Shown: positions 10,188 through 60,356, counted from the whole stretch's first letter. The stretch: 62,766 nt of DNA, filler included, from Collodictyon triciliatum (GCA_043381765.1; 7 parts of 7 records of this genome joined end to end with filler, not necessarily neighbours in it); one strand, 5' to 3'. Notes: generated by a model from the sequence alone, not told the origin. Translations and numbers: made by a program.

Positions 10188-10287
10188 NNNNNNNNNNNNN
10201 NNNNNNNNNNNNNNNNNNNNNNNNNNNNNNNTTAATTAATTAANNNNNNNNNNNNNNNNNNNNNNNNNNNNNNNNNNNNNNNNNNNN
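10188..10287. other. Artificial 100-bp scaffold linker N44-TTAATTAATTAA-N44 (also 19162-19261, 29442-29541, 39715-39814, 49989-50088, 60257-60356)
   Basis: Identical structure six times; the core carries stop codons in all frames. Confidence 0.97.
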
Positions 10288-19161: not shown

Positions 19162-19261
19162 NNNNNNNNNNNNNNNNNNNNNNNNNNNNNNNNNNNNNNN
19201 NNNNNTTAATTAATTAANNNNNNNNNNNNNNNNNNNNNNNNNNNNNNNNNNNNNNNNNNNN

Positions 19262-22200
19262 CAAGCCCGCCTCGAGGAGCTGCTGAATACCAAGCCTGAT
19301 GCTTCCATGAAGGATGTTTCTGTGGAATGGCGCAGTGAAACGAATAGCCGCTTCCCATTCATCGGTGGAATGCCTGGGCTGAGTGTGACTGAATACGAGG
19401 TGAAGTGAATCTCTACATTTTACTATTTATCATTCTTATTAATTACAATTGAAAAATCAACAAATCATTCTCTAAATCATATATTCATATTCAGATTCAG
19501 TACGCCTGTCTGATTGACAAACCAGCGTGCAGCCGCGCCTTCTTCTACCTCCGCGATGAGCAATATGCTGTCGAACATGCCAAGAACGAGGAAGAAAGAA
19601 AGCTATTCCAAGCTGAAAGCGAAGAGGCGGTAAAAATTGATAAAAAGTCTTGTGTTTTGTTTTCGAGTAATATGTTATGTTTATTTAATTATTTAATTTT
19701 TTGACATATATTGTAATGTATTTTTTTTTAGCGTAAGAGGCAGGACGAGCTCAAAGGGAAAGTCAAGGCCAAGTTCGGGCATGTTGTCTACAAGGGAGCG
19801 AAGGAGTATTCTGACTTTGTGACTTACCATCTCACCTACGCCATCAAGCGTGACTTTGGGAAGCAAACTGTATTTTTTTTTGTTTTTTTTATTTTTTAAT
19901 GGATATCAGTATTGATTGGTGATATATATATCATTTATATTTTGTTGACATAACTATATCATAGGTGAGAGACCCTGAAGACCAAGCGCAGCACCAGTTC
20001 AAGATGCATCGACTGGCTGGGTTTGGTGGAAGAAAGGAGCTTCTCAAGACAATCACGGAGCAAGTAAGATAAAGAGCAATTAATTAAAAATGACAATAAT
20101 ATCGTTTGCTATTCTTTTCTTATCTATAATTTATTTTATCAGGCCATGAATCAGCTGAACACCGAGAAGTCCAAAATCATCGTTCTTGCTGCGGAGTCTG
20201 GGATTGGAAAGTCGTCGCTGATGGCTGCTACAGCGAGAGACCTCGAAGGGCTGACGCATCCTGGGCTGCATGTCTTTTTCCATTTTGTCGGATGCACCAA
20301 TCTCAGCAACTACGTGGAAAGGTTATTTTACATTTCTTTTTCTTTTTATAGATATAAATATATTATATAGTTTTTTCTAAAAATATTTGTTTTATATTAG
20401 TGTTTCGATTCGCTTCTGGACTTTGGTCGCAAACTCTGCCAACTTTGTCGAACAAAAGAAGCAAGAAGCTGGTATTACATTATTGTATTTTATTTTTTTA
20501 TTTTTATTCAAATGTCGTATACTTCATGCATTTATTTTATTTTGCCGCTAGAATACGAAAAAGAGGGACTCCAGGGCTTGCTGAAAATAATTCAGGAGAA
20601 AAACAAGTAATACTTCAATTTTTATGTATTTAAATTATAAAATCAAAATTAAAATAATTTGAATCGAATTAAAAATAATTGATATAAAATTATGTTTTAT
20701 AGAGACGAGAAGTTTGTCTTCCTCATCGATGCCATCAACCAAATCCACCCATCGCAAGGAACGCCAGCTCCGCATCTGCTGACCTGGTTGCCCAAGGAAA
20801 CGCCAGCTAATGTTGCCATTGTTGTGTCGACCATTCATACTCATGAATCTTGCGCGGTATTCACCATTTAATATTATTTTTTGTATATGTTTGTATTTTC
20901 TGCATAAAAAATGAATTGAGTAGAACTTTACTAAATGTATCTTTTATAAGTCTGCCAAGCAAAGTGGACTGGAGCCGATTCCTGTCGCCAAGTTGACTGA
21001 GGGCGAAATTAAGGATGGTGTCGAATCCTTCCTCATTCGCTATGACAAGACCCTGAATGAAAAGCAAGTTGGAATGATTCTGGATGACTTTGAAGATACC
21101 GGTGAGACATTTTTTTAAAAGAGTATATATGTTGATAAAAAAAATTTCCAAGCAAAGATTTAGTTATTCTTATGTGATATTTTTTTATAGGCCATCCGCT
21201 CTATCTCCGCATCATTCTGGATGAAGTCAGGGTCTTTGGCGTCTATGAGAAGCTTGATGAAGAACTAAATACTCTGCTTTCAACCAAAGGTGTCATTGAG
21301 CTTTACACTCTTATTATCAAGCGCTGGCAATTGAAGTTTGACAGGAAAGGTGAGTATTGGTTTCATATTTCACAAAAAAAAATGCAAATTATAATTGAAA
21401 TTTTTGTTGAATACTTTTTTTTATTGTACAGTCTCCTCTTCTGATGTAAAAGATACAATGAATATCGAGTATGTCTCCCTCTCGATGAAGGTTCTCTTTG
21501 TCTCCCGCATCGGCCTGAGTGAAGGTGACCTGGACAATTACATGAAAGACGCGATTGGCACAGGATTCGAGCTTGCTGAATGGTTTACTTAGTATTGAAT
21601 TTTAATAGAATGAATAGGCTAACTCTTTCTCTTTTCTCATTTTTTATTTAACTTATCTTTTATCCATTCAAATAGGAAATCCTTCTTCTTTACCCTCATC
21701 GAGTCGCTTTTCGTCCGCAATGGAAGGTTAGTGTTATTTCTCAGTTCTTTTCTTTCGTTAATATGTGTTTTTGGTATTATTTTATTTGGATATAAAACTA
21801 ACTATTGTCTATCATAGATACATGTACTTCCACCAGCTGCTACTGGAGACCACCGAAAAGGTCTACTTCTCCGAAAACCAGGAGATGGAAAAAACGCACG
21901 AAAAATACGGAAAATGGCTGTTTGGCCAGTATTCTGAGGCTGCTGACGCGGATGAGGAGCTTGCTGCTGAAATATGCTACCAGCTTCTGAAGGGCAGTTC
22001 GTTTGACTTGCTTGTCGAATACATGAAGCAAAAACATGTAATTTCTATTTTTATTTTGAGTCATAATGAGACGATTTTCACTGATTAATTTAAATATTTT
22101 ATAGGTTATCAGCATCATGCTTGGTGGTCGCTATCGCTACGAGTTCTTTACGTGCTGGAGAGCAATCAACGCAAGTGGAGCGGCGAACTACAAAGAAGCC

Positions 22201-25200
22201 TATGGAAGCTTGGCTAAGGTATTTTACTATTTATTTTAATTTTTTGAAGGTTACTACTCACAATTTTAATTATTAATCATGATTTATCTATTAATTATTG
22301 TTTTTTTCAGTCTTTGGATAATGTGGGAGACCTGCTTGTTGGATTTTTCTTGGAGTCTTTTGAGAACTCGTTCTTGTTGTCTGTTCTGAATGTGCGTCTT
22401 GGAAAGCATCAAACAGAAGGTATGCAATTTATTGTTAATTTTTGAAGAATTTATGTCATGAATATGAGTTTATATATAGATATGTTCAATAATCTATTAA
22501 ATCATAGATGCGAAGGCTGCTGATTACCTAAATCTCGGTCGTGTCTACAAGAACCTCCAAAAGTAAAAAAAATTAAAAAAATCAATGATATAATTAAGAA
22601 ATGACATGATGTGTATTATGCAAACTTTTCTAAAGTAAAAATCAATTAAACAGCTGGGCTGAATCCATAGTCTACTACAAGAAATGTCTCAATTCAGTCG
22701 AGAAAAATGCTGATGATTCCCTGCGTATTGCCACCATTCATGAAGAGATGGGAATCGTCTACCAGCAACAGGATAAGTAAGGCTCGCCTTCAACTGTAAA
22801 ATATATTATGAATAATGTTTCAAAAAGGAATTATTCTGATTTTTTTATGAAATAGAATTGATGAGGCTCTCGATGAATACAAGAAATCACTGGACTTGAG
22901 AATCAAACAACTGGGCGAGAATGACTTGCAAGTGGCCCAATCACATGACCGCTTCGGAGACATATATGTGAAACAGTCAAAGTAATAATTGAATCATTTA
23001 TATTCACTAATATTCTGCTTTTTTTTGTAAAAACAAATAAACGTTGATCAATTTTTTATGATAGGAATGAGCAAGCTCTGGTTGAATATGAAAAAGCCAT
23101 GGAAATCCGCCAAAAGAAAGTCGGAAACGAGCATCCTCTTGTCGCAACATCGTACCAGAACTATGGTCATGTCTCTCTGGCTGCGAAAAAGTGGCATATT
23201 TGTCCATAAAAGGCAGTTTTAAATACAGCTATGATAATTTTGAGAAATATTAATATGATTGAATCACCAAGGTATGAAGATTCTATTGTTAACTACGAAA
23301 AGGCAAAATCAATCCTTGATAAATCACTGGGAGCTAAGCATGCATCTGTTGCCTCGACAATCCAGTTTATTGCGAGTGTTCATCTTGCCAGTGGAAAGTT
23401 CGAATTTTATTATTTTTTTTTAGATATTTTCATATAATAATTATTTCTTTCAATCAATTTTTGCAAGATAGTTTGGATTCATATATTTCATTCGTGTGGA
23501 CTCTATTTAGGGTTAAAATTATGCATAAGATAATTTTAACAGATGTATTAAATATCAAAACTATCGCGTTTTATAGGAAAACTGAGGCCTTATCGTCATT
23601 AAAGCAATCGCTGGATATTTTCATGTCTGCCCTGGGTGAAAATCATCCGAATGTTGTGGCCTGCTATGAGATGATTGGAGACATCAGCCATGATTTGAAG
23701 GAGTATCTCTTTTTATCAATTATATTATTTTTTATTTTGAATTGAAAACAATAATTTATTTACCCATATTATCATCCTAGCTTCAAGGATGCTTTGGAGG
23801 CCTATACAAAGACGCTGGATATTCGCTTGAGAACACTGGGCGAAAAGCATGCTGATTATGCTACTGCCCTTGAGAATGTTGGCCGAACAAACTTTGAGCT
23901 TCAAAGGTTTATTTCTCTTTATATTGAAAAATCGAATATTTTGATTAACACTAGTAAAAAAACATCAATAATAACTAATCAGCATGCATTTAGTTCTGCT
24001 CAATGTGTTGATTGCTTTCAGAAGGCAGCTGCTATCAGAAAGGAGACAAAGACTGCCATATCATTGAAAGAAGGTTCACAATGTACAAGAATTGCGAAAA
24101 TTATGGGAGACAAAAAAGAGCATGAAGCTGTCACTCAGCTTTACAAAACAGCTGCTGTTAGAAATGGTGAAAAGTCATCCTATGAAAACTGGGACTGCTG
24201 GGTGGCTTGTGAGAATGCAGACAAGATTTACAAGGAACTGAAGCAGCATAACGAAGCTGTGGCATTCTGGGGTGACATGAGAGACAGATTTTCTGATAAA
24301 CTCGCATGGATTCACCCCAGAACATTGAACGCATGCGAATACTTGTCCGTCCATTCAAAAGAAATCAGAATCAATAAAGAGCCCGCCGAGTATACAAGAG
24401 TCAAGGATTTCATCAGTGAAGCTCTTGATGGTGTCAAACTGGATGAGAAATGGAATCGTGAGCAAATCATCGCGTCATTATTCAGAATTGTCTACATGTC
24501 AAAGACTGATGAGAGCAAGTCAAAGGCTGCATCTGATGCAATTACGCTTTTGAATTTCATGAATGTTTCGTTTGGTGGGATGGATTTATCAAACATCAAA
24601 ATTCCAAATGCAAATCTCAGTAACTCAATCCTTGATGGTGCAAACTTTGCTGGTGCCGACTTGGATGGTGTTGATTTCACGAATTCGATGCTTGGTGATA
24701 GTGTTTTTGATAATGCGAATATGAATAATGTGAAATTCGGAATTCCTCATGATAAATTGGAAGGTCATAAATTTACTGTCACCAGTGTTTGCAGTTTTCT
24801 AGGACCGAATGGTGAAAACTGGTTGGCTTCTGGAAGTAGGGATAATACAATACGCATTTGGGATGTAGCCACAGGAAACCAAATCAAAACATTAAATGGG
24901 CATACAGGTGTTGTCTTGAGTGTTTGCAGTATTCAAGGACCGAATGGTGAAAAGTGGTTGGCTTCTGGAAGTCGGGATAAAACAATACGTGTTTGGGATG
25001 TAACCACAGGAAAACGAATCAAAACATTAGAAGGACATACAAGTTATGTCAATAGTATTTGCAGTATCCAAGGACCGAATGGTGAAAATTGGTTGGCTTC
25101 TGGAAGTGATGATAAATCAATACGTATTTGGGATGTAAACACAGGAAACCAAATCAAAACATTAAAAGGTCATACAGATCGTGTCAGAAGTGTTTGCAGT

Positions 25201-26748
25201 ATTCAAGGACTGAATGGTGAAAAATGGTTGGCTTCTGGAAGTGATGATAAATCAATACGTATTTGGGATGTAAACACAGGAAACCAAATCAAAACATTAG
25301 AAGGTCATACAAGGGATGTCTATAGTGTTTGCAGCATTCAAGGACCGAATGGAGAAAAGTGGCTGGCTTCTGGAAGTGATGATAGAACAATACGTGTTTG
25401 GGATGCAGCCGCAGGAAACCAAATCAAAACATTAGAAGGTCTTAAAAATTATGTCAGGACTGTTTGCAATATCCAAGGACGGAATGGTGAAAATTGGTTG
25501 GCCATTGCTAGAAGTAAAGATAAAACTATACTTATTTGTGATGTAGCCACAGGAAACCAAACACACAGCCTGCAAAAGTCAAAGGTGACCTACACCCAAG
25601 GAAAATACCTTGTCAAGAAAGAAAAGCCAGACGAAGTCATCGCAGTATTCAACAGAACAAGTGATGCGATGAACAAGATTGACACCAACAAAATCCAAGA
25701 TGCAAAGACAGTCCAGATTATCGGCCCAAGAAAGCTGCAAGGTGGAAGCATCCAAATTAGAAATGTCACAAGATTGAGTCAATTCAACAAATCCCTCCTA
25801 CTTTCTGTTGGTGCTGCTTCCTTTGATGCGGACTTTGTTGCCTATTGTGAGCAGAGTAAGTTCACAAAGTTCCTGGCTCAAATGAAGGCTGAATGGTACG
25901 AGAATGGATCGAGTGTGGAGATGGACTCTGAGAAAGAAGCCGAATGGTTCAAGAGGGCTGAAAACTATGATAATGATTATGATGATGAAGACGAAGATGA
26001 CAAAGACGGAAATGAAGTTGAAAATGAGGAAGAAGAAGACGGAAATGAGGATGAAAATGATGAAGAAGACGGAAATGAGGTTGAAAATGAGAAAGAAGAC
26101 GGAAATGAGGATCAAAAAGAGGAAGAAGACGAAAATGAGGATCAAAATGAGGAAGAAGACGGAAATGAGGATGAAAATGATGAAGAAGACGGAAATGAGG
26201 TTGAAAATGAGAAAGAAGACGGAAATGAGGATCAAAAAGAGGAAGAAGAAGACGAAAATGAGGATGAAAATGAGGAAGAAGACGGAAATGAAGTTGAAAA
26301 TGATGAAGAAGACGGAAATGAAGTTGAAAATGAGAAAGAAGACGGAAATGAGGATCAAAAAGAGGAAGAAGAAGATGGAAATGAGGATCAAAATGAGGAA
26401 GAAGAAGACGGAAATGAGGATGAAAATGAGAAAGAAGACGGAAATGAGGATGAAAATGAGGAAGAAGAAGACGGAAATGAGGATGAAAATGAGGAAGAAG
26501 ATGAAGATGAGGATGAAAATGAGGAAGAAGAAGACGAAAATGAGGATGAAAATGAGGAAGAAGGCGGAAATGAGGATGAAAATGAGGAAGAAGACAGAAA
26601 TGAGGTTGAAAATGAGGAAGAAGACGAAAATGAGGATCAAAATGAGGAAGAAGACGAAGATATGGATGAAAATGAGGAAGAAGACGAATATAAAGAAAAC
26701 GAGGATGAGGAAGAGGGGGAATGGGAAGACGAAGAATATCGCAGTTGA
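19262..26748 (+). CDS. NLR-like STAND protein: DUF4062 - NACHT - TPR array - pentapeptide repeats - WD40 x6 - Sel1-like repeat - acidic tail (5' truncated, 23 exons visible)
   Basis: SVTEYEIQYA..FFYLRD; Walker A AESGIGKS; FFHFVG; Walker B FVFLIDAINQ; WLP; HPLYL; 42-aa TPRs; ANLSNSILDGANFAGADL; GH..V.SV..LASGS.D..IRIWD. All 22 introns are GT-AG and keep frame. Confidence 0.92.
24755..25560 (+). repeat. Six 135-bp near-identical WD40-coding tandem repeats
   Basis: GG(T/A)GAAAA.TGG.TGGC motif at 24811, 24946, 25081, 25216, 25351, 25486. Confidence 0.95.
25965..26735 (+). repeat. 30/33-bp coding minisatellite (DGNEDENEEE-type acidic tail)
   Basis: GACGGAAATGAGGATGAAAATGAGGAAGAA variants in tandem. 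Confidence 0.95.
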
Positions 26749-29359
26749 GCGGAGACAGAAAGTCTCAGCTAAACATGGTAAGCAATGTAAACAAAAGAAT
26801 ATCAATATACATTCTTTAACTATAATCATCTTAGATAAGGAGATTCCCAAGGGGTTTTAAAGTAGACCTCTGCTTTTTTCCAGAAGGATATCCCATAAAA
26901 ACAGAATAAAACAATAAAAATAAAAGCAAAGCTATCTGATATTTATTGAAATTCTTCTTTTCTCTTTTCTCTTTTCTCTTTTCTCTTTTCTCTTTTCTCT
27001 TTTCTCTTNNNNNNNNNNNNNNNNNNNNNNNNNNNNNNNNNNNNNNNNNNNNNNNNNNNNNNNNNNNNNNNNNNNNNNNNNNNNNNNNNNNNNNNNNNNN
27101 NNNNNNNNNNNNNNNNNNNNNNNNNNNNNNNNNNNNNNNNNNNNNNNNNNNNNNNNNNNNNNNNNNNNNNNNNNNNNNNNNNNNNNNNNNNNNNNNNNNN
27201 NNNNNNNNNNNNNNNNNNNNNNNNNNNNNNNNNNNNNNNNNNNNNNNNNNNNNTTTCAGCGTTCTGATGTTTTGCCGTGACAGCTGCCCTTCACTCAACC
27301 ATCCTTCATCCGCCGTCCTTCTCAATCTTTTCTTTTTGTCCTGAAGGACACTCAACACTAGCCGCCGATCGACTTGCTTGTGCATTTATTGGTCTTTCTT
27401 GGCAACCACAAGGCATATTTTCAGCCGATCACCAGTCGATTCTCTCACACGCTCGACCCAAGGTTCATTCCCTCTCTTATTCCCACAATCAACGAGAAGT
27501 TAATAAGAAAGCCTTTGATGGAACAGCAATTATGGTTGTCTGAATCAATACTCATCATTTATCTTTTTGTTTTCATATGATGAACTGCATACACATTGCC
27601 GATCAAACATATAGCTATATTTTTTTAATATTATTTTCTCTATTTTGTTCTTATTACTTTTTTTCTTCTTGGAATAACGCCACGAGGATCGAAAGCGCTG
27701 GCTCGAAGCAAACACACAACCGAACGCAAGAACGGAGCCCTCCGCTCGACCAAAGGTTCCTAGCCACACCTAATCGCCCACAAAGAGCGCCCGGAAGCAG
27801 AACCTGTACGGAGCCGGCTGCCACGTCCGCCTTCGAGGTAAGCACAAACTGCCCAGAACTACCACGCCCACATACAGGTAAGGAAAGAATAAGCCCAGTC
27901 CTGAAAGATCTTGAGTGCCATAATGAGATGACTATGAACCAGCTATTCGATCAACTTCAGGAATACACAGCAACCTTTCCAAAACAAATAATTGCAGAGA
28001 CGAGAGTAAAATAATACTTAACTGCTTTTTTTTATGTCTCCATAACGAGAGAGGCCAGCTCTTTTGCTACCCATTATCAGCCGCATTCCTCCGAGCTTCA
28101 TCAAGGGCGACACTGAAGGTACGTGAAAAACAACAAACAACTCATCTTCACAGTATTCTCCAAGGGTCAAAATGTGTTTTTGATGAATGAAGCGCTGAAC
28201 AAGAATACAACATCAGAACTACCCAAAGTATAAAAAAAATTATATGTAAAGTTTCCCTTCTCTATTTCGTGCTCTGTCCCAGAACACAAGGGAAAAGTCA
28301 AAAGAAAATATCATGGTAAACACCGCCACAAATACTAACAGAACGAGCTGTCAATCATAGGAAGACAATGTCATCCCTTTTAAACCCAACCACCCGGAGC
28401 TATGGAAGAATAAGCATCGCTCAAGCAAGAAGCAACTCATACAAGAGCTTTCCAAAAAGAGCGGGCGGATTCTTCGAGACGCGCCTCACACTAAAACAGT
28501 CTGGACAAGCAATTCAAGGTACAATAGTATGTAGCCAAAATTATTTTCATTTTCATGCTAAATGAAAGTTTACTTTTTCACTCGAATAGTATTAGTATAC
28601 AAGGATAATTCCTAACGAAGATTATCTTTCATGATTTGTCTGTTAATGCAAGGCACTTTTGGAAAAAAACGCTTCCGTTGAATGAAAGGCAAGCACCTAA
28701 GCCTGCAAAACTTAAGCGGTGGTGGTTTGGTTTTTTTTTATCCCACGTTAAGCCTTCACGATGAAAATCTCAGGCTTTAATTAACGGAGAGTAGTCCACG
28801 AGTATCGGTATTACAATTTTATTTTGTTTGTGAATTTGTCATTCTGTGGGAATATACTAACCATCACATATAATTTGGGACATTTGCACAATTTCGATTA
28901 GATTCAAAGGAATTATATAAGTCGACCTGGAAGAATATCAATCTATTATGCAGACTTTCATACATCACATTTGTTATATTATACGAAATATTTAGCATTA
29001 AGAGAATGTTTAGTGGCTGTATGATACATAAGCAAATCACATCCATATTATTTACAAAAAAGCAACTAAAAAAGCATAGAATTAATTTCAACTTGATATA
29101 TATTTGTATTCACGAATAGTTTATTTCATAATAAATAAAAATATTAAGAGTTGTAATATTGAGCTATGAGCTTTAATACAATATAATCTTATTAGCCTAT
29201 CGAAATTATCTAAAAAGCATTCAAAATATGAATCGATAAATCAAACAATATCTATTCATGAAAAAGTAGGATAACTTGGTTGATAATTGGCGCATATTAT
29301 AACCCATGAATACGAATTTTTTTATACAACACACAGAAAGAAATAGGAAGATTCAAAAC

Positions 29360-29416
29360 ATGTCTGCAACCGAAACAAGCACCGAGGCCAACGTCAGCCT
29401 TGTCACCATTGACGAA
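29360..29416 (+). CDS. Possible first exon of an unidentified gene cut by the scaffold end
   Basis: AAAACATG context, MSATETSTEANVSLVTIDE, then GT; coding-like composition. Confidence 0.35.
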
Positions 29417-29849
29417 GTCTGTACAAATGCATACATTATCTNNNNNNNNNNNNNNNNNNNNNNNNNNNNNNNNNNNNNNNNNNNNTTAATTAATTAANNN
29501 NNNNNNNNNNNNNNNNNNNNNNNNNNNNNNNNNNNNNNNNNTTTTCTTTTTTTGTTTCTTTTTTTGTTTCTTTTTTTGTTTCTTTTTTTGTTTCTTTTTT
29601 TGTTTCTTTTTTTTGTTTCTTTTTTTTGTTTCTTTTTTTGTTTCTTTTTTTGTTTCTTGCTTTTTGTTTCTTGCTTTTTGTTTCTTGCTTTTTGTTTCTT
29701 GCTTTTTGTTTTCTGGTTTATCGTGCTCTGTGTGTGTTTATCAGTCACGCAATTAGTTTGTGGGTAAAGGCACAACTCATGCCCATATTCTCACGCCACT
29801 TTATATACCTGTTACCTACTTTTACTAAAGAATAATAATCTATTGCCAG

Positions 29850-37083: not shown

Positions 37084-37824
37084 TTAGACGTTTGCGCAGG
37101 GCCCGGCCGGGGTGCGGTAGGCCTCCGGGACGCCGAGGAGCCAGTCGCGGGCGTCCCACTGGGCAGCCTCGCCGACAAAGTAGGAGAAGGGCGGCAGGGC
37201 AGCGTAGGGCCAGTCGCGGGGGGCGTCTGGGCAGACGAAGCGGTCGCGGGGGACGGAGCCTGTGATGCGGACGTTTGCGCAGGAGTGGTATGTGGAGAAG
37301 CAGGTGCCGAGGGGCTCCTGGCAGGTGGTGCAGGAGGCATCGTACGTGCAGTTTGTGAGGCCGAGGGCGGGCAGCTTGTCGGTCATGGGGTTGACGAGCT
37401 GCAGGGCGCAGCGGTCGCACTGGACGTCCGGAATCACCACGGTGATGCGCGAGCGCGTGTACGAGGCCTCCACGCCAAAGACGGGCGCGTTGGTGTCGTC
37501 GTGCGGGATGTGGTTGAGCAGCAGGCAGCTCTCGTACGAGTCTGTGCCCTCCAGCGAGAGCGCAATGCGGAACGGCGCCCCCGTGTGCGCAATCGACTCC
37601 TCAAAGACAAGCGTGTTCGGCCCCGGCGCAAGCGTCACGCTCGGCCCGCTGAAGTCTCCCGTCTGCGATCCGCACGGGCCTGTCTTGATCCCCGTGCTGC
37701 TGCTGCGCGGTGCAGGGCACACCCACCGCGAGTGTCCCGCGCACGGCCCTGCCGCGTGCAGCGCAACTGCCACCAGAAGCGCCGTGGCGGCTGCAAGGTA
37801 GGAGCCTCTCTGTCTCTGTAGCAT
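37084..37824 (-). CDS. Secreted, intronless LPMO-like copper histidine-brace protein (SCE4755-family-like), 246 aa
   Basis: Signal peptide ending CAG then His1 (HSRWVCPAPR), KTGPCG, EESIAHTG..RIAL, PDVQCDRCALQL, YHSCANV. Confidence 0.8.
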   Translation of the reverse strand: MLQRQRGSYLAAATALLVAVALHAAGPCAGHSRWVCPAPRSSSTGIKTGPCGSQTGDFSGPSVTLAPGPNTLVFEESIAHTGAPFRIALSLEGTDSYESCLLLNHIPHDDTNAPVFGVEASYTRSRITVVIPDVQCDRCALQLVNPMTDKLPALGLTNCTYDASCTTCQEPLGTCFSTYHSCANVRITGSVPRDRFVCPDAPRDWPYAALPPFSYFVGEAAQWDARDWLLGVPEAYRTPAGPCANV

Positions 37825-38186
37825 GGCTGCCCTCGTGGTTCTGCCTGGTCGGTGCCCTCCCGCGTTAATAAAAACACGCCTTGTTCTTTTATTGCTTTCA
37901 TATTCTGTTTTTTTGTTTTGTTTTGTTTTTTTATGTATTCTATTGGGGAGCTGCATCCCGCTCAAGTTGCCGGCGTAGGCCAGACAGCTCATTGCAGGTT
38001 TGAGGGGTGACTCGCGTATCTTCGTTTTTGTTTGTTTGTTTGTTTGTTTGTTTGTTTGTTTGTTTGTTTGTTTGTTTGTTTGTTTGTTTGTTTGTTTGTT
38101 TTTTTTTTGGTTGGCTGGTTGGTCTGATCAGCAGGTTGCCAAGCGCGGCGTGAAGATGAGCCTCCAAGACCGCGTGGAATGTGTTC

Positions 38187-38818: not shown

Positions 38819-38984
38819 TCATACCCTGCACTGTTACCTCGGGCCGCAACAACGCCACCTAGGACCGCATCGTCGATTCCTTGGGTGGAATGGCGAGATG
38901 GAGACAAACAAAATCGCATCATCGAAGAATCAAACCCCTCATGGTCGATAAATGCTCTCTAGCCACATCAATCTACCACTCAAA

Positions 38985-39714
38985 GGGTGCATCGTCCTGG
39001 AGCAGAATCTCAAACAACCCGGTCGCTACAAAGACAGAGCGGGGTGTATCAAGGCTGCCCACTTGCACCACTGCTCTTCAACTTTGTCGCTGACTGCCTT
39101 GCAAACCACTTCCGAAACGAAAACAAGGTACGCAACCAACTGCTACTTCAATATGCAGACGACACAGCATTCATCTTGCGGTCTCCCGAAGGCGCCACAC
39201 TCGCCAACAAATGCATGCAAGAATACACACGAGCTGTCGGCGGGAAAATCAACTATGACAAGACAGATGGAATTCTTTTTGGGTTTCAGGATGGACTTAT
39301 GTTTCCAGGAAACATTGTGTGGAAGTCACCGTCACATCCACTCAAGTATCTTGGTATCATATTCGGTCCACAATCGGATAGCAAATGGACAAGCCTGGTT
39401 GAGGACATCAAGTCGAAAATATCAGTGTGGAGCAACTTTCATCTCTCGGACGTGGGGAAAGTAAGGTTGTGGAATCAAGTGATGCTGTCGACCCTTATCT
39501 ACAACATGAAAGGCACTTTGCTGAATCCCCAAAGGCTGAAGGAGCTGGAAGACATCTGCCGCAACTTCATCACTACGAATAATCAAAAATATAAAATCAA
39601 GACGCTCTCTAAGCCACCTACGGAGGGAGGACTGGGACTCATAACGCCTGGCATTGCATGGACATCACTCACGATGAGATGGTGGACAGATATGCTTACC
39701 CATCCGAAAGGATT
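38985..39714 (+). mobile_element. L1/Tx1-type LINE reverse transcriptase fragment (cut by scaffold end)
   Basis: GVYQGCPLAPLLF, QYADDT, KINYDKT, KYLGI, PPTEGGLGL. Confidence 0.95.
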
Positions 39715-40020
39715 NNNNNNNNNNNNNNNNNNNNNNNNNNNNNNNNNNNNNNNNNNNNTTAATTAATTAANNNNNNNNNNNNNNNNNNNNNNNNNNNNNN
39801 NNNNNNNNNNNNNNCTTTTCTTTTCTTTTCTTTTCTTTTCTTCTCTTTTCTTCTCTTTTCTTCTCTTTTCTTTTCTTTTCTTTTCTTTTCTTTTCTTTTC
39901 TTTTCTTTTCTTTTCTTTTCTTTTCTTTTCTTTTCTTTTCTTTTCTTTTCTTTTCTTTTCTTTATTCTGGATTTGCACACTATGTTGCGGGTAAGGCTTT
40001 CTTCAAATAAAAATATGTAG

Positions 40021-49988: not shown

Positions 49989-50088
49989 NNNNNNNNNNNN
50001 NNNNNNNNNNNNNNNNNNNNNNNNNNNNNNNNTTAATTAATTAANNNNNNNNNNNNNNNNNNNNNNNNNNNNNNNNNNNNNNNNNNNN

Positions 50089-60029: not shown

Positions 60030-60356
60030 TAAAACGATATAACTGCAAACTAGAGCTTCTTGCGCTTCACCATTCTTTCTATAATGTAATGTTTCCTCTT
60101 TTCCTCCTTTTTTCCTCCCTTCCTTTCTTCTACGTTATAATGGTCTCTTCTTTCTTTTCTTTTTTTCTTTTCTTTTTTTCTTTTCTTTTTTTCTTTTCTT
60201 TTTTTCTTTTCTTTTTTTCTTTTTTTCTTTTCTTTTTTTCTTTTTTTCTTTTCTTTNNNNNNNNNNNNNNNNNNNNNNNNNNNNNNNNNNNNNNNNNNNN
60301 TTAATTAATTAANNNNNNNNNNNNNNNNNNNNNNNNNNNNNNNNNNNNNNNNNNNN

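Follow-up and report, generated by a model that had tools for sequence, protein, structure and literature searches.

Results

A TPR array encoded one period per exon

In a stretch of Collodictyon triciliatum DNA of 62,766 nt (GCA_043381765.1; hereafter the window), we analyzed a gene for a large, putatively NLR-like protein, in which six consecutive exons of nearly equal size each encode one period of a protein-binding array of tetratricopeptide repeats (TPRs). Our results point, with a probability of roughly 70%, to an array that arose long ago, when an exon and its intron were duplicated together in tandem, and that then diverged and became fixed, and not to a working system of exon shuffling. 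The six exons share one phase and one cut point in the repeat, they are spliced one after another, their sequences have diverged to saturation, and their order is kept in the relatives seen.

The window consists of seven separate pieces with N44-TTAATTAATTAA-N44 spacers between them, and genes count as neighbours only within a piece. The piece carrying the gene spans 19262-29441 (10.2 kb); the region is AT-rich and eukaryotic, with short GT-AG introns. The first base of the gene is the first base of the piece, where the 5' end is truncated. A model built from coordinates only places the gene on the plus strand at 19262-26748, with 23 exons, GT-AG at every border, and a single open frame of 1826 amino acids with one terminal stop; because the 5' end is cut, 1826 amino acids is the minimum length of the protein. 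Encoded in this order are a P-loop nucleoside triphosphatase (NTPase) resembling the STAND type, the TPRs, pentapeptide repeats, WD40 repeats, and an acidic tail.

The sequence-only reading of this DNA had listed six TPR exons (exons 17-22 of our model), one of 123 nt and five of 126 nt, all of phase 2-2 and all cut at one position of the repeat. Their coordinates and lengths proved exact, with GT-AG borders and one open frame. Each exon is preceded by AG and followed by GT, and the joined exons read as one TPR-like open frame; exon 17 is one codon shorter than the others, in the linker. The common phase and cut point were likewise borne out by the 23-exon model and by the Pfam register, since TPR_12 (PF13424) matched all six exons from model position 19 or 20 to 54-59 of 77. 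The E-values per exon ranged from 7.3e-7 to 9e-3 and the scores from 16.6 to 29.7 bits, each under the 30.1-bit cut-off because a single exon spans half of the 77-position model. Some of the six exons also matched TPR_10 or TPR_NPHP3. With the acceptor after exon 22 placed at 23994, the pattern extends to seven consecutive phase-2 introns, all cutting the identical repeat position. An alternative acceptor at 24022 was rejected since the frame is lost with it; position 23994 agrees with the frame, with the register of the repeats, and with an RNA joint. Intron 22 is in frame and stop-free, and for this reason a scan for open reading frames (ORFs) reads straight through from 23755 to 26748. Retention of this intron would add 29 residues and keep the frame.

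The array is flanked by half units. The first helix A is encoded by exon 16, which matches the second half of the exon profile weakly (profile positions 30-40, E 8.6), and the last helix B is encoded by the head of exon 23, which aligns gap-free to the exon starts with an identity of 10-17%. Under the consensus of the kinesin light chain (KLC) type, which we take to apply here and with which the Pfam register agrees, each exon comprises helix B of one repeat, a short linker, and the following repeat's helix A; the turn connecting helices A and B would be where the introns lie. The TPR arm of this large NLR-like gene would accordingly be read as seven KLC-type TPRs of 42 residues, split by the seven phase-2 introns.

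The uniform size and phase of these exons are not a product of chance. The 16 upstream exons vary from 51 to 220 nt in length, and the 15 upstream introns are of mixed phase in the 23-exon model (seven of phase 0, four of phase 1, and four of phase 2). Furthermore, the nucleotide identity among the six exons in register averaged 44.5%, compared with 24.5% (s.d. 4.3) in circularly shifted controls.

Splicing of the array

Contigs from three public sequencing runs (X1, X2, and X3, the last a freshwater metatranscriptome) were aligned on positions 22100-24400, and only stretches under contig cover enter the evidence given here. Four runs had matched, with shares of at most 0.12, and the fourth, X4, contributed no contigs. 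GT..AG joints link exons 18 and 19, exons 20 and 21, exons 21 and 22, and exons 22 and 23 (Table 1). In addition, loose ends of the alignments at 22562, 22776, 23192, and 23702 enter the next exon, with 27/30, 25/27, 18/22, and 22/26 letters matching by eye; the first of these runs from exon 16 into exon 17. Upstream of the array, the joints 22218>22311 and 22419>22508 (cut +2), the latter leading into exon 16, and a loose end linking 22037 to 22105 support three of the borders of exons 1-15, and the remaining borders of that part were assigned from sequence. No exon-skipping joint was found among the 15 RNA joints listed of 27. Several apparent joints without GT-AG borders (e.g. 22951>23098, 23180>23297, and 23654>23793) were considered as splice variants and rejected; they fit diverged related copies that were aligned piecewise, and all lie between consecutive exons. 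The gene is expressed, and the array is spliced exon after exon as predicted.

Divergence of the TPR exons

Pairwise identity among exons 17-22 was 35-52% at the nucleotide level and 12-39% at the protein level. The synonymous divergence (dS) between TPR exons was saturated: of 10 pairs, 7 gave no defined value and the remaining three gave 1.1-2.1. No homology was detected between any of the seven TPR introns, whose shared words were AT-rich and at most 19 nt long. Spare, decayed, or orphan TPR exons were sought with hmmsearch on the six-frame pieces, nhmmer, and tblastn; these searches of both strands of 62.8 kb, of which 10.2 kb are the true neighbourhood of the gene, recovered only the six exons, and the next nhmmer match had an E-value of 3.4. 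The long intron 23398-23576 was considered as a site of a decayed exon, and this candidate was rejected (no similarity, domain E 420).

When a profile of the six exons was searched against protein sequences, 48 proteins were obtained at E <=0.001, nearly all with TPR_12, the best at E 2.3e-98. Besides two short fragments from close relatives (P0049 and P0066), the matches were generic TPR_12 or CHAT proteins, and apart from these fragments the best identity of a database protein to a single exon was 52%.

Related copies

Four public "hypothetical proteins" of 86-392 amino acids (P0049, P0193, P0066, and P0084) come from genomic contigs of relatives, on which an ORF caller has read from an exon through the intron into the next exon. 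They preserve the intron positions and therefore provide indirect evidence on the gene structure. In P0049, a unit like exon 20 is followed, after an intron, by one like exon 21, with the order kept (40/47 and 56/62 identical). In P0084, which is 73% identical over 355 residues, an intron separates the end of a unit like exon 22 from the head of exon 23. Among the RNA contigs, at least three different related sequences span the exon 22/23 border, all collinear, and in the diverged contigs each exon is joined to the same successor as here.

The differences from related contigs that were listed for exons 17-22 (from 40 of 90 differences) comprise 11 synonymous changes and 7 nonsynonymous ones, most of these 7 being conservative; because the contigs mix several related copies, this count is rough. 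Signs of diversifying selection on the TPR exons were not seen in these mixed contigs and listed differences. Two related contigs are shorter in frame than the gene described here: one by a net 42 nt across the border of exons 15 and 16 (22394-22527), and another by a net 81 nt within the degenerate TPR-like linker (24099-24183).

A full-length relative was not found. A protein database search with the linker, directed at longer proteins, yielded 24 matches, all through the pentapeptide part, and the gene's own protein was absent from the protein collection searched. Two scans of metagenome contigs gave 63 and 592 pattern matches, none of which was confirmed as a relative. The best Protein Atlas scores (0.76-0.82) were all to generic WD40 or pentapeptide clusters, which serve as leads only and name no taxon.

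C-terminal module

The last exon (exon 23) is 2755 nt long and intron-less. Following the final TPR helix B and a helical linker, it encodes the pentapeptide repeats, the WD40 array, and the acidic tail (Table 1). Among WD40 units 0-4, identity is 81-91% in DNA and 69-84% in protein, with a dS of 0.08-0.27 and a ratio of nonsynonymous to synonymous divergence (dN/dS) of 0.6-2.1. Within the 45 residues of a unit, columns 7, 8, and 10 are different in each of the five units, which was reached by 68 of 100000 random allocations of an equal number of changes. These three columns also differ in the relative P0084. Should this protein contain a fast-changing sensor, that role falls to the intron-less WD40 array and not to the exon cassettes, and the array is a more promising lead than the TPR exons.

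NTPase region and other features of the window

Pfam searches with the separate exons, not the spliced protein, gave matches of the NTPase region to AAA_16, NPHP3_N, NACHT, and nSTAND, all below cut-off; NB-ARC was not among them. For exon 5, which carries the P-loop, the scores were 19.5 bits (AAA_16), 18.9 bits (NPHP3_N), and 15.5 bits (NACHT; model positions 3-50). The protein thus appears to be STAND- or NLR-like. In the translation of 20703-20856, the Walker B strand was seen by eye to be followed by Ala-Ile-Asn-Gln. NACHT proteins carry an acidic pair at the position after the Walker B strand. Because Ala-Ile-Asn-Gln stands at that position here, ATP hydrolysis by this NTPase may be weak or absent.

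The other pieces of the window carry polyprenyl synthase, Myb, and calreticulin genes and fragments of long interspersed nuclear elements (LINEs). Fragments of LINE-type reverse transcriptase lie at 38963-39718 and 1203-1766 (RVT_1 52.2 bits; zf-RVT 28.7 bits). On the minus strand, 37084-38127 is a GC-rich island (GC 0.54) with an open frame of 347 amino acids and no Pfam match.

Table 1 Features of the gene and of the window. Positions are counted from the first nucleotide of the window; X1, X2, and X3 are the sequencing runs whose contigs contain the joint.
Feature	Position	Strand	Description
Spacers between pieces	10188-10287, 19162-19261, 29442-29541, 39715-39814, 49989-50088, 60257-60356		
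Exons 1-15	19262-22419	+	STAND-type NTPase region and helical region; 5' end cut; GT-AG model, one open frame
Exon 5	20143-20321	+	P-loop (Walker A) exon; weak Pfam matches
Exon 8	20703-20856	+	Walker B exon; NACHT 14 bits (model positions 77-128), match colinear with that of exon 5
Exon 16	22508-22562	+	Half unit encoding the first TPR helix A; phase 2 at its end
Exon 17, TPR cassette 1	22654-22776	+	123 nt, phase 2-2; TPR_12 model positions 19-58; loose ends at both junctions
Exon 18, TPR cassette 2	22856-22981	+	126 nt, phase 2-2; joint 22981>23065 (GT..AG) in X1, X2
Exon 19, TPR cassette 3	23065-23190	+	126 nt, phase 2-2; TPR_12; RNA contigs
Exon 20, TPR cassette 4	23272-23397	+	126 nt, phase 2-2; joint 23397>23577 in X1, X2, X3
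Exon 21, TPR cassette 5	23577-23702	+	126 nt, phase 2-2; joint 23702>23781 in X2
Exon 22, TPR cassette 6	23781-23906	+	126 nt, phase 2-2; joint 23906>23994 (cut +2) in X1, X2
Seven phase-2 introns	22563-22653, 22777-22855, 22982-23064, 23191-23271, 23398-23576, 23703-23780, 23907-23993	+	91, 79, 83, 81, 179, 78, and 87 nt; GC 0.18-0.28
Intron 22	23907-23993	+	87 nt, in frame, stop-free; acceptor at 23994; spliced out in RNA contigs
Head of exon 23	23994-24558	+	Final TPR helix B in register, then helical linker resembling degenerate TPR (by eye)
Pentapeptide repeats	24559-24759	+	PF00805, 50.8 bits (cut-off 20.2)
WD40 array	24754-25563	+	Six 135-nt units, intron-less; period 135, 5.9 copies, 84% matches; PF00400, 174.6 bits
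Acidic tail	26003-26686	+	30-nt tandem repeat, 22.2 copies; rich in Asp, Glu, and Asn; stop codon 26746-26748

Discussion

Origin and role of the TPR exons

We propose that an exon-plus-intron unit was duplicated in tandem long ago, that the copies diverged, and that the array became fixed. The exons are now spliced in succession and appear to be held under purifying selection, a pattern that one would expect of a rigid scaffold or of a fixed binding surface. Set between the NTPase on one side and the pentapeptide and WD40 repeats of the C-terminus on the other, the TPR arm may serve as a rigid superhelical scaffold, or as a fixed surface for a partner.

Several points weigh against this proposal. 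The symmetric exons permit in-frame skipping, contigs drop rare isoforms, and the RNA figures come from the listed part of the joints and differences. The run type of X1 and X2 is a guess, both include unspliced or DNA contigs, and the mixture of copies in the contigs blurs the count of synonymous and nonsynonymous changes. The absence of spare exons covers the gene's own 10.2-kb neighbourhood and not the rest of the genome. In addition, the collinear copies may come from close relatives as orthologues rather than represent paralogues. Finally, the class of the NTPase rests on Pfam matches below cut-off.

Of the other explanations, the one that survives best shares our view of how the exons arose and departs from it only over the role of the arm. 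The TPR arm could be a passive spacer, with ligand sensing wholly in the WD40 propeller and an exon layout that has no present function. The high identity of the WD40 units together with their dN/dS, the three columns that differ in all units and again in P0084, and the conservation of the TPR exons are consistent with this. Conservation of the TPR surface would, however, fit a fixed partner equally well, and we regard a passive arm as possible but clearly less probable than an arm with a structural or binding role.

A more far-reaching idea is that one 126-nt TPR cassette design is present in the NLR-like families of brown algae and of this protist, which stand very far apart among eukaryotes, having either arisen twice or descended from an ancient form with cut point and phase shared; here, it would feed TPR diversification at the level of the family while the WD40 repeats vary fast, which would amount to a two-tier sensor. 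We consider this doubtful.

The sequence-only reading had inferred an array from which any cassette can be skipped, duplicated, or exchanged in frame to give combinatorial sensors. As far as the frame is concerned this holds, since any of the exons can be removed or doubled without a frame break; skipping, duplication, or exchange into combinatorial sensors is unsupported at this locus. An active system of this kind, in which alternative splicing or recombination in the introns generates many variants of a TPR sensor as has been proposed for Ectocarpus, would be in keeping with the phase 2 of all seven borders, exon lengths that are multiples of three, the NLR-like character of the gene, the expression of several related copies, and the precedent itself (PMC3341825). 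Nevertheless, with nucleotide identities of 52% or less no two exons look recently copied, the introns are unrelated, and the listed differences from relatives are mostly synonymous. The search for orphan 126-nt exons that had been suggested as a check recovered the same six exons and no pseudo-exon in the 62.8 kb. Furthermore, a collinear exon order without alternative isoforms, the outcome named beforehand as speaking against shuffling, is approached on the limited data at hand: every related copy seen is collinear, and no skip occurs among the 15 of 27 joints listed. An active cassette system is therefore unlikely here. An old, fixed layout that is held under purifying selection can look ready for shuffling, and thus the layout alone is no evidence of ongoing shuffling.

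Least probable of all is parallel intron gain, in which an intron-less TPR array came first and a favoured site in each repeat was then hit independently: the gene is dense in introns (22 in 7.5 kb) and does contain intron-less repeats (the WD40 units and, in the last exon, the helices that resemble degenerate TPRs), but seven independent events at an identical codon position and phase are improbable, the exon ends share no insertion motif (TAA, AAA, AAA, AAA, GGA, and AAG, a single one of which ends in AG), and duplication of exon plus intron accounts for the equal sizes and phases in one step.

Comparison with known systems

Among the papers listed, a literature search for one TPR per exon outside brown algae found nothing relevant beyond PMC3341825 and PMC11378527, and a search for NLRs of Diphylleia or Collodictyon likewise gave nothing on topic. 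The exon layout itself is already known in NB-ARC-TPR genes of the brown alga Ectocarpus siliculosus, and the precedent that had been named for the present array is real. As described by Zambounis et al. 2012 (PMC3341825), 124 TPR exons of 126 nt (42 amino acids) occur in 13 of 24 NB-ARC genes, each exon corresponds to a 34-residue TPR plus a linker, inactivated TPR exons lie in introns, and the paralogues are not alignable. Common to these genes and ours are an NTPase of the STAND type followed by KLC-type TPRs, a 42-residue period for each 126-nt exon, and a length that is a multiple of three.

The two systems also differ. Inactivated TPR exons are described in that source for Ectocarpus, whereas none was found here in the window and the relatives here are collinear; the NTPase here gives weak matches to NACHT, NPHP3_N, and AAA_16 without a match to NB-ARC. 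In the present gene the introns of the TPR array are 78-179 nt long, and the protein runs on into pentapeptide and WD40 repeats. The cut here appears to lie between helix A and helix B, and the likeness of the exons to those of Ectocarpus is one of length and period. In the ROCO leucine-rich repeat (LRR) genes of Ectocarpus, one 24-residue LRR is encoded per 72-nt exon (PMC3341825; PMC11378527). They have in common with our gene one repeat per symmetric exon and the status of candidate receptors; the repeat and the NTPase are different, however, and exon copies occur there on both strands, while no such copies were found in our window. With the TPRs of kinesin light chain and nephrocystin-3 (TPR_12, TPR_10, and TPR_NPHP3), the array shares the 42-residue period and the consensus, which is a similarity of repeat type and does not imply orthology. 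Our analysis extends the architecture of a candidate immune receptor of brown algae to an unrelated, little-studied protist lineage.

Fungal NLRs of the NWD/HET-E family carry WD40, ANK, or TPR repeats with high internal conservation, delimited by a threshold of more than 85% for the protein identity of the repeats, taken over 100 residues or more, according to Dyrka et al. 2014 (PMC4986451). Measured on that scale, the WD40 units of the present gene (69-84%) are close to this level but below it, and the TPR exons show 12-39%. A focus of variation on few positions of the repeat is true of the WD40 array only and not of the TPR exons. According to the same paper, diversification of the fungal genes takes place within single exons by reshuffling of repeats and not through exon cassettes. 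The present gene resembles them in joining an NLR-like NTPase to repeats that form a superstructure, and in WD40 units that are near-identical with few hypervariable positions. If this reading of the WD40 array holds, repeat-based diversification of NLR-like receptors reaches beyond fungi, plants, and animals.

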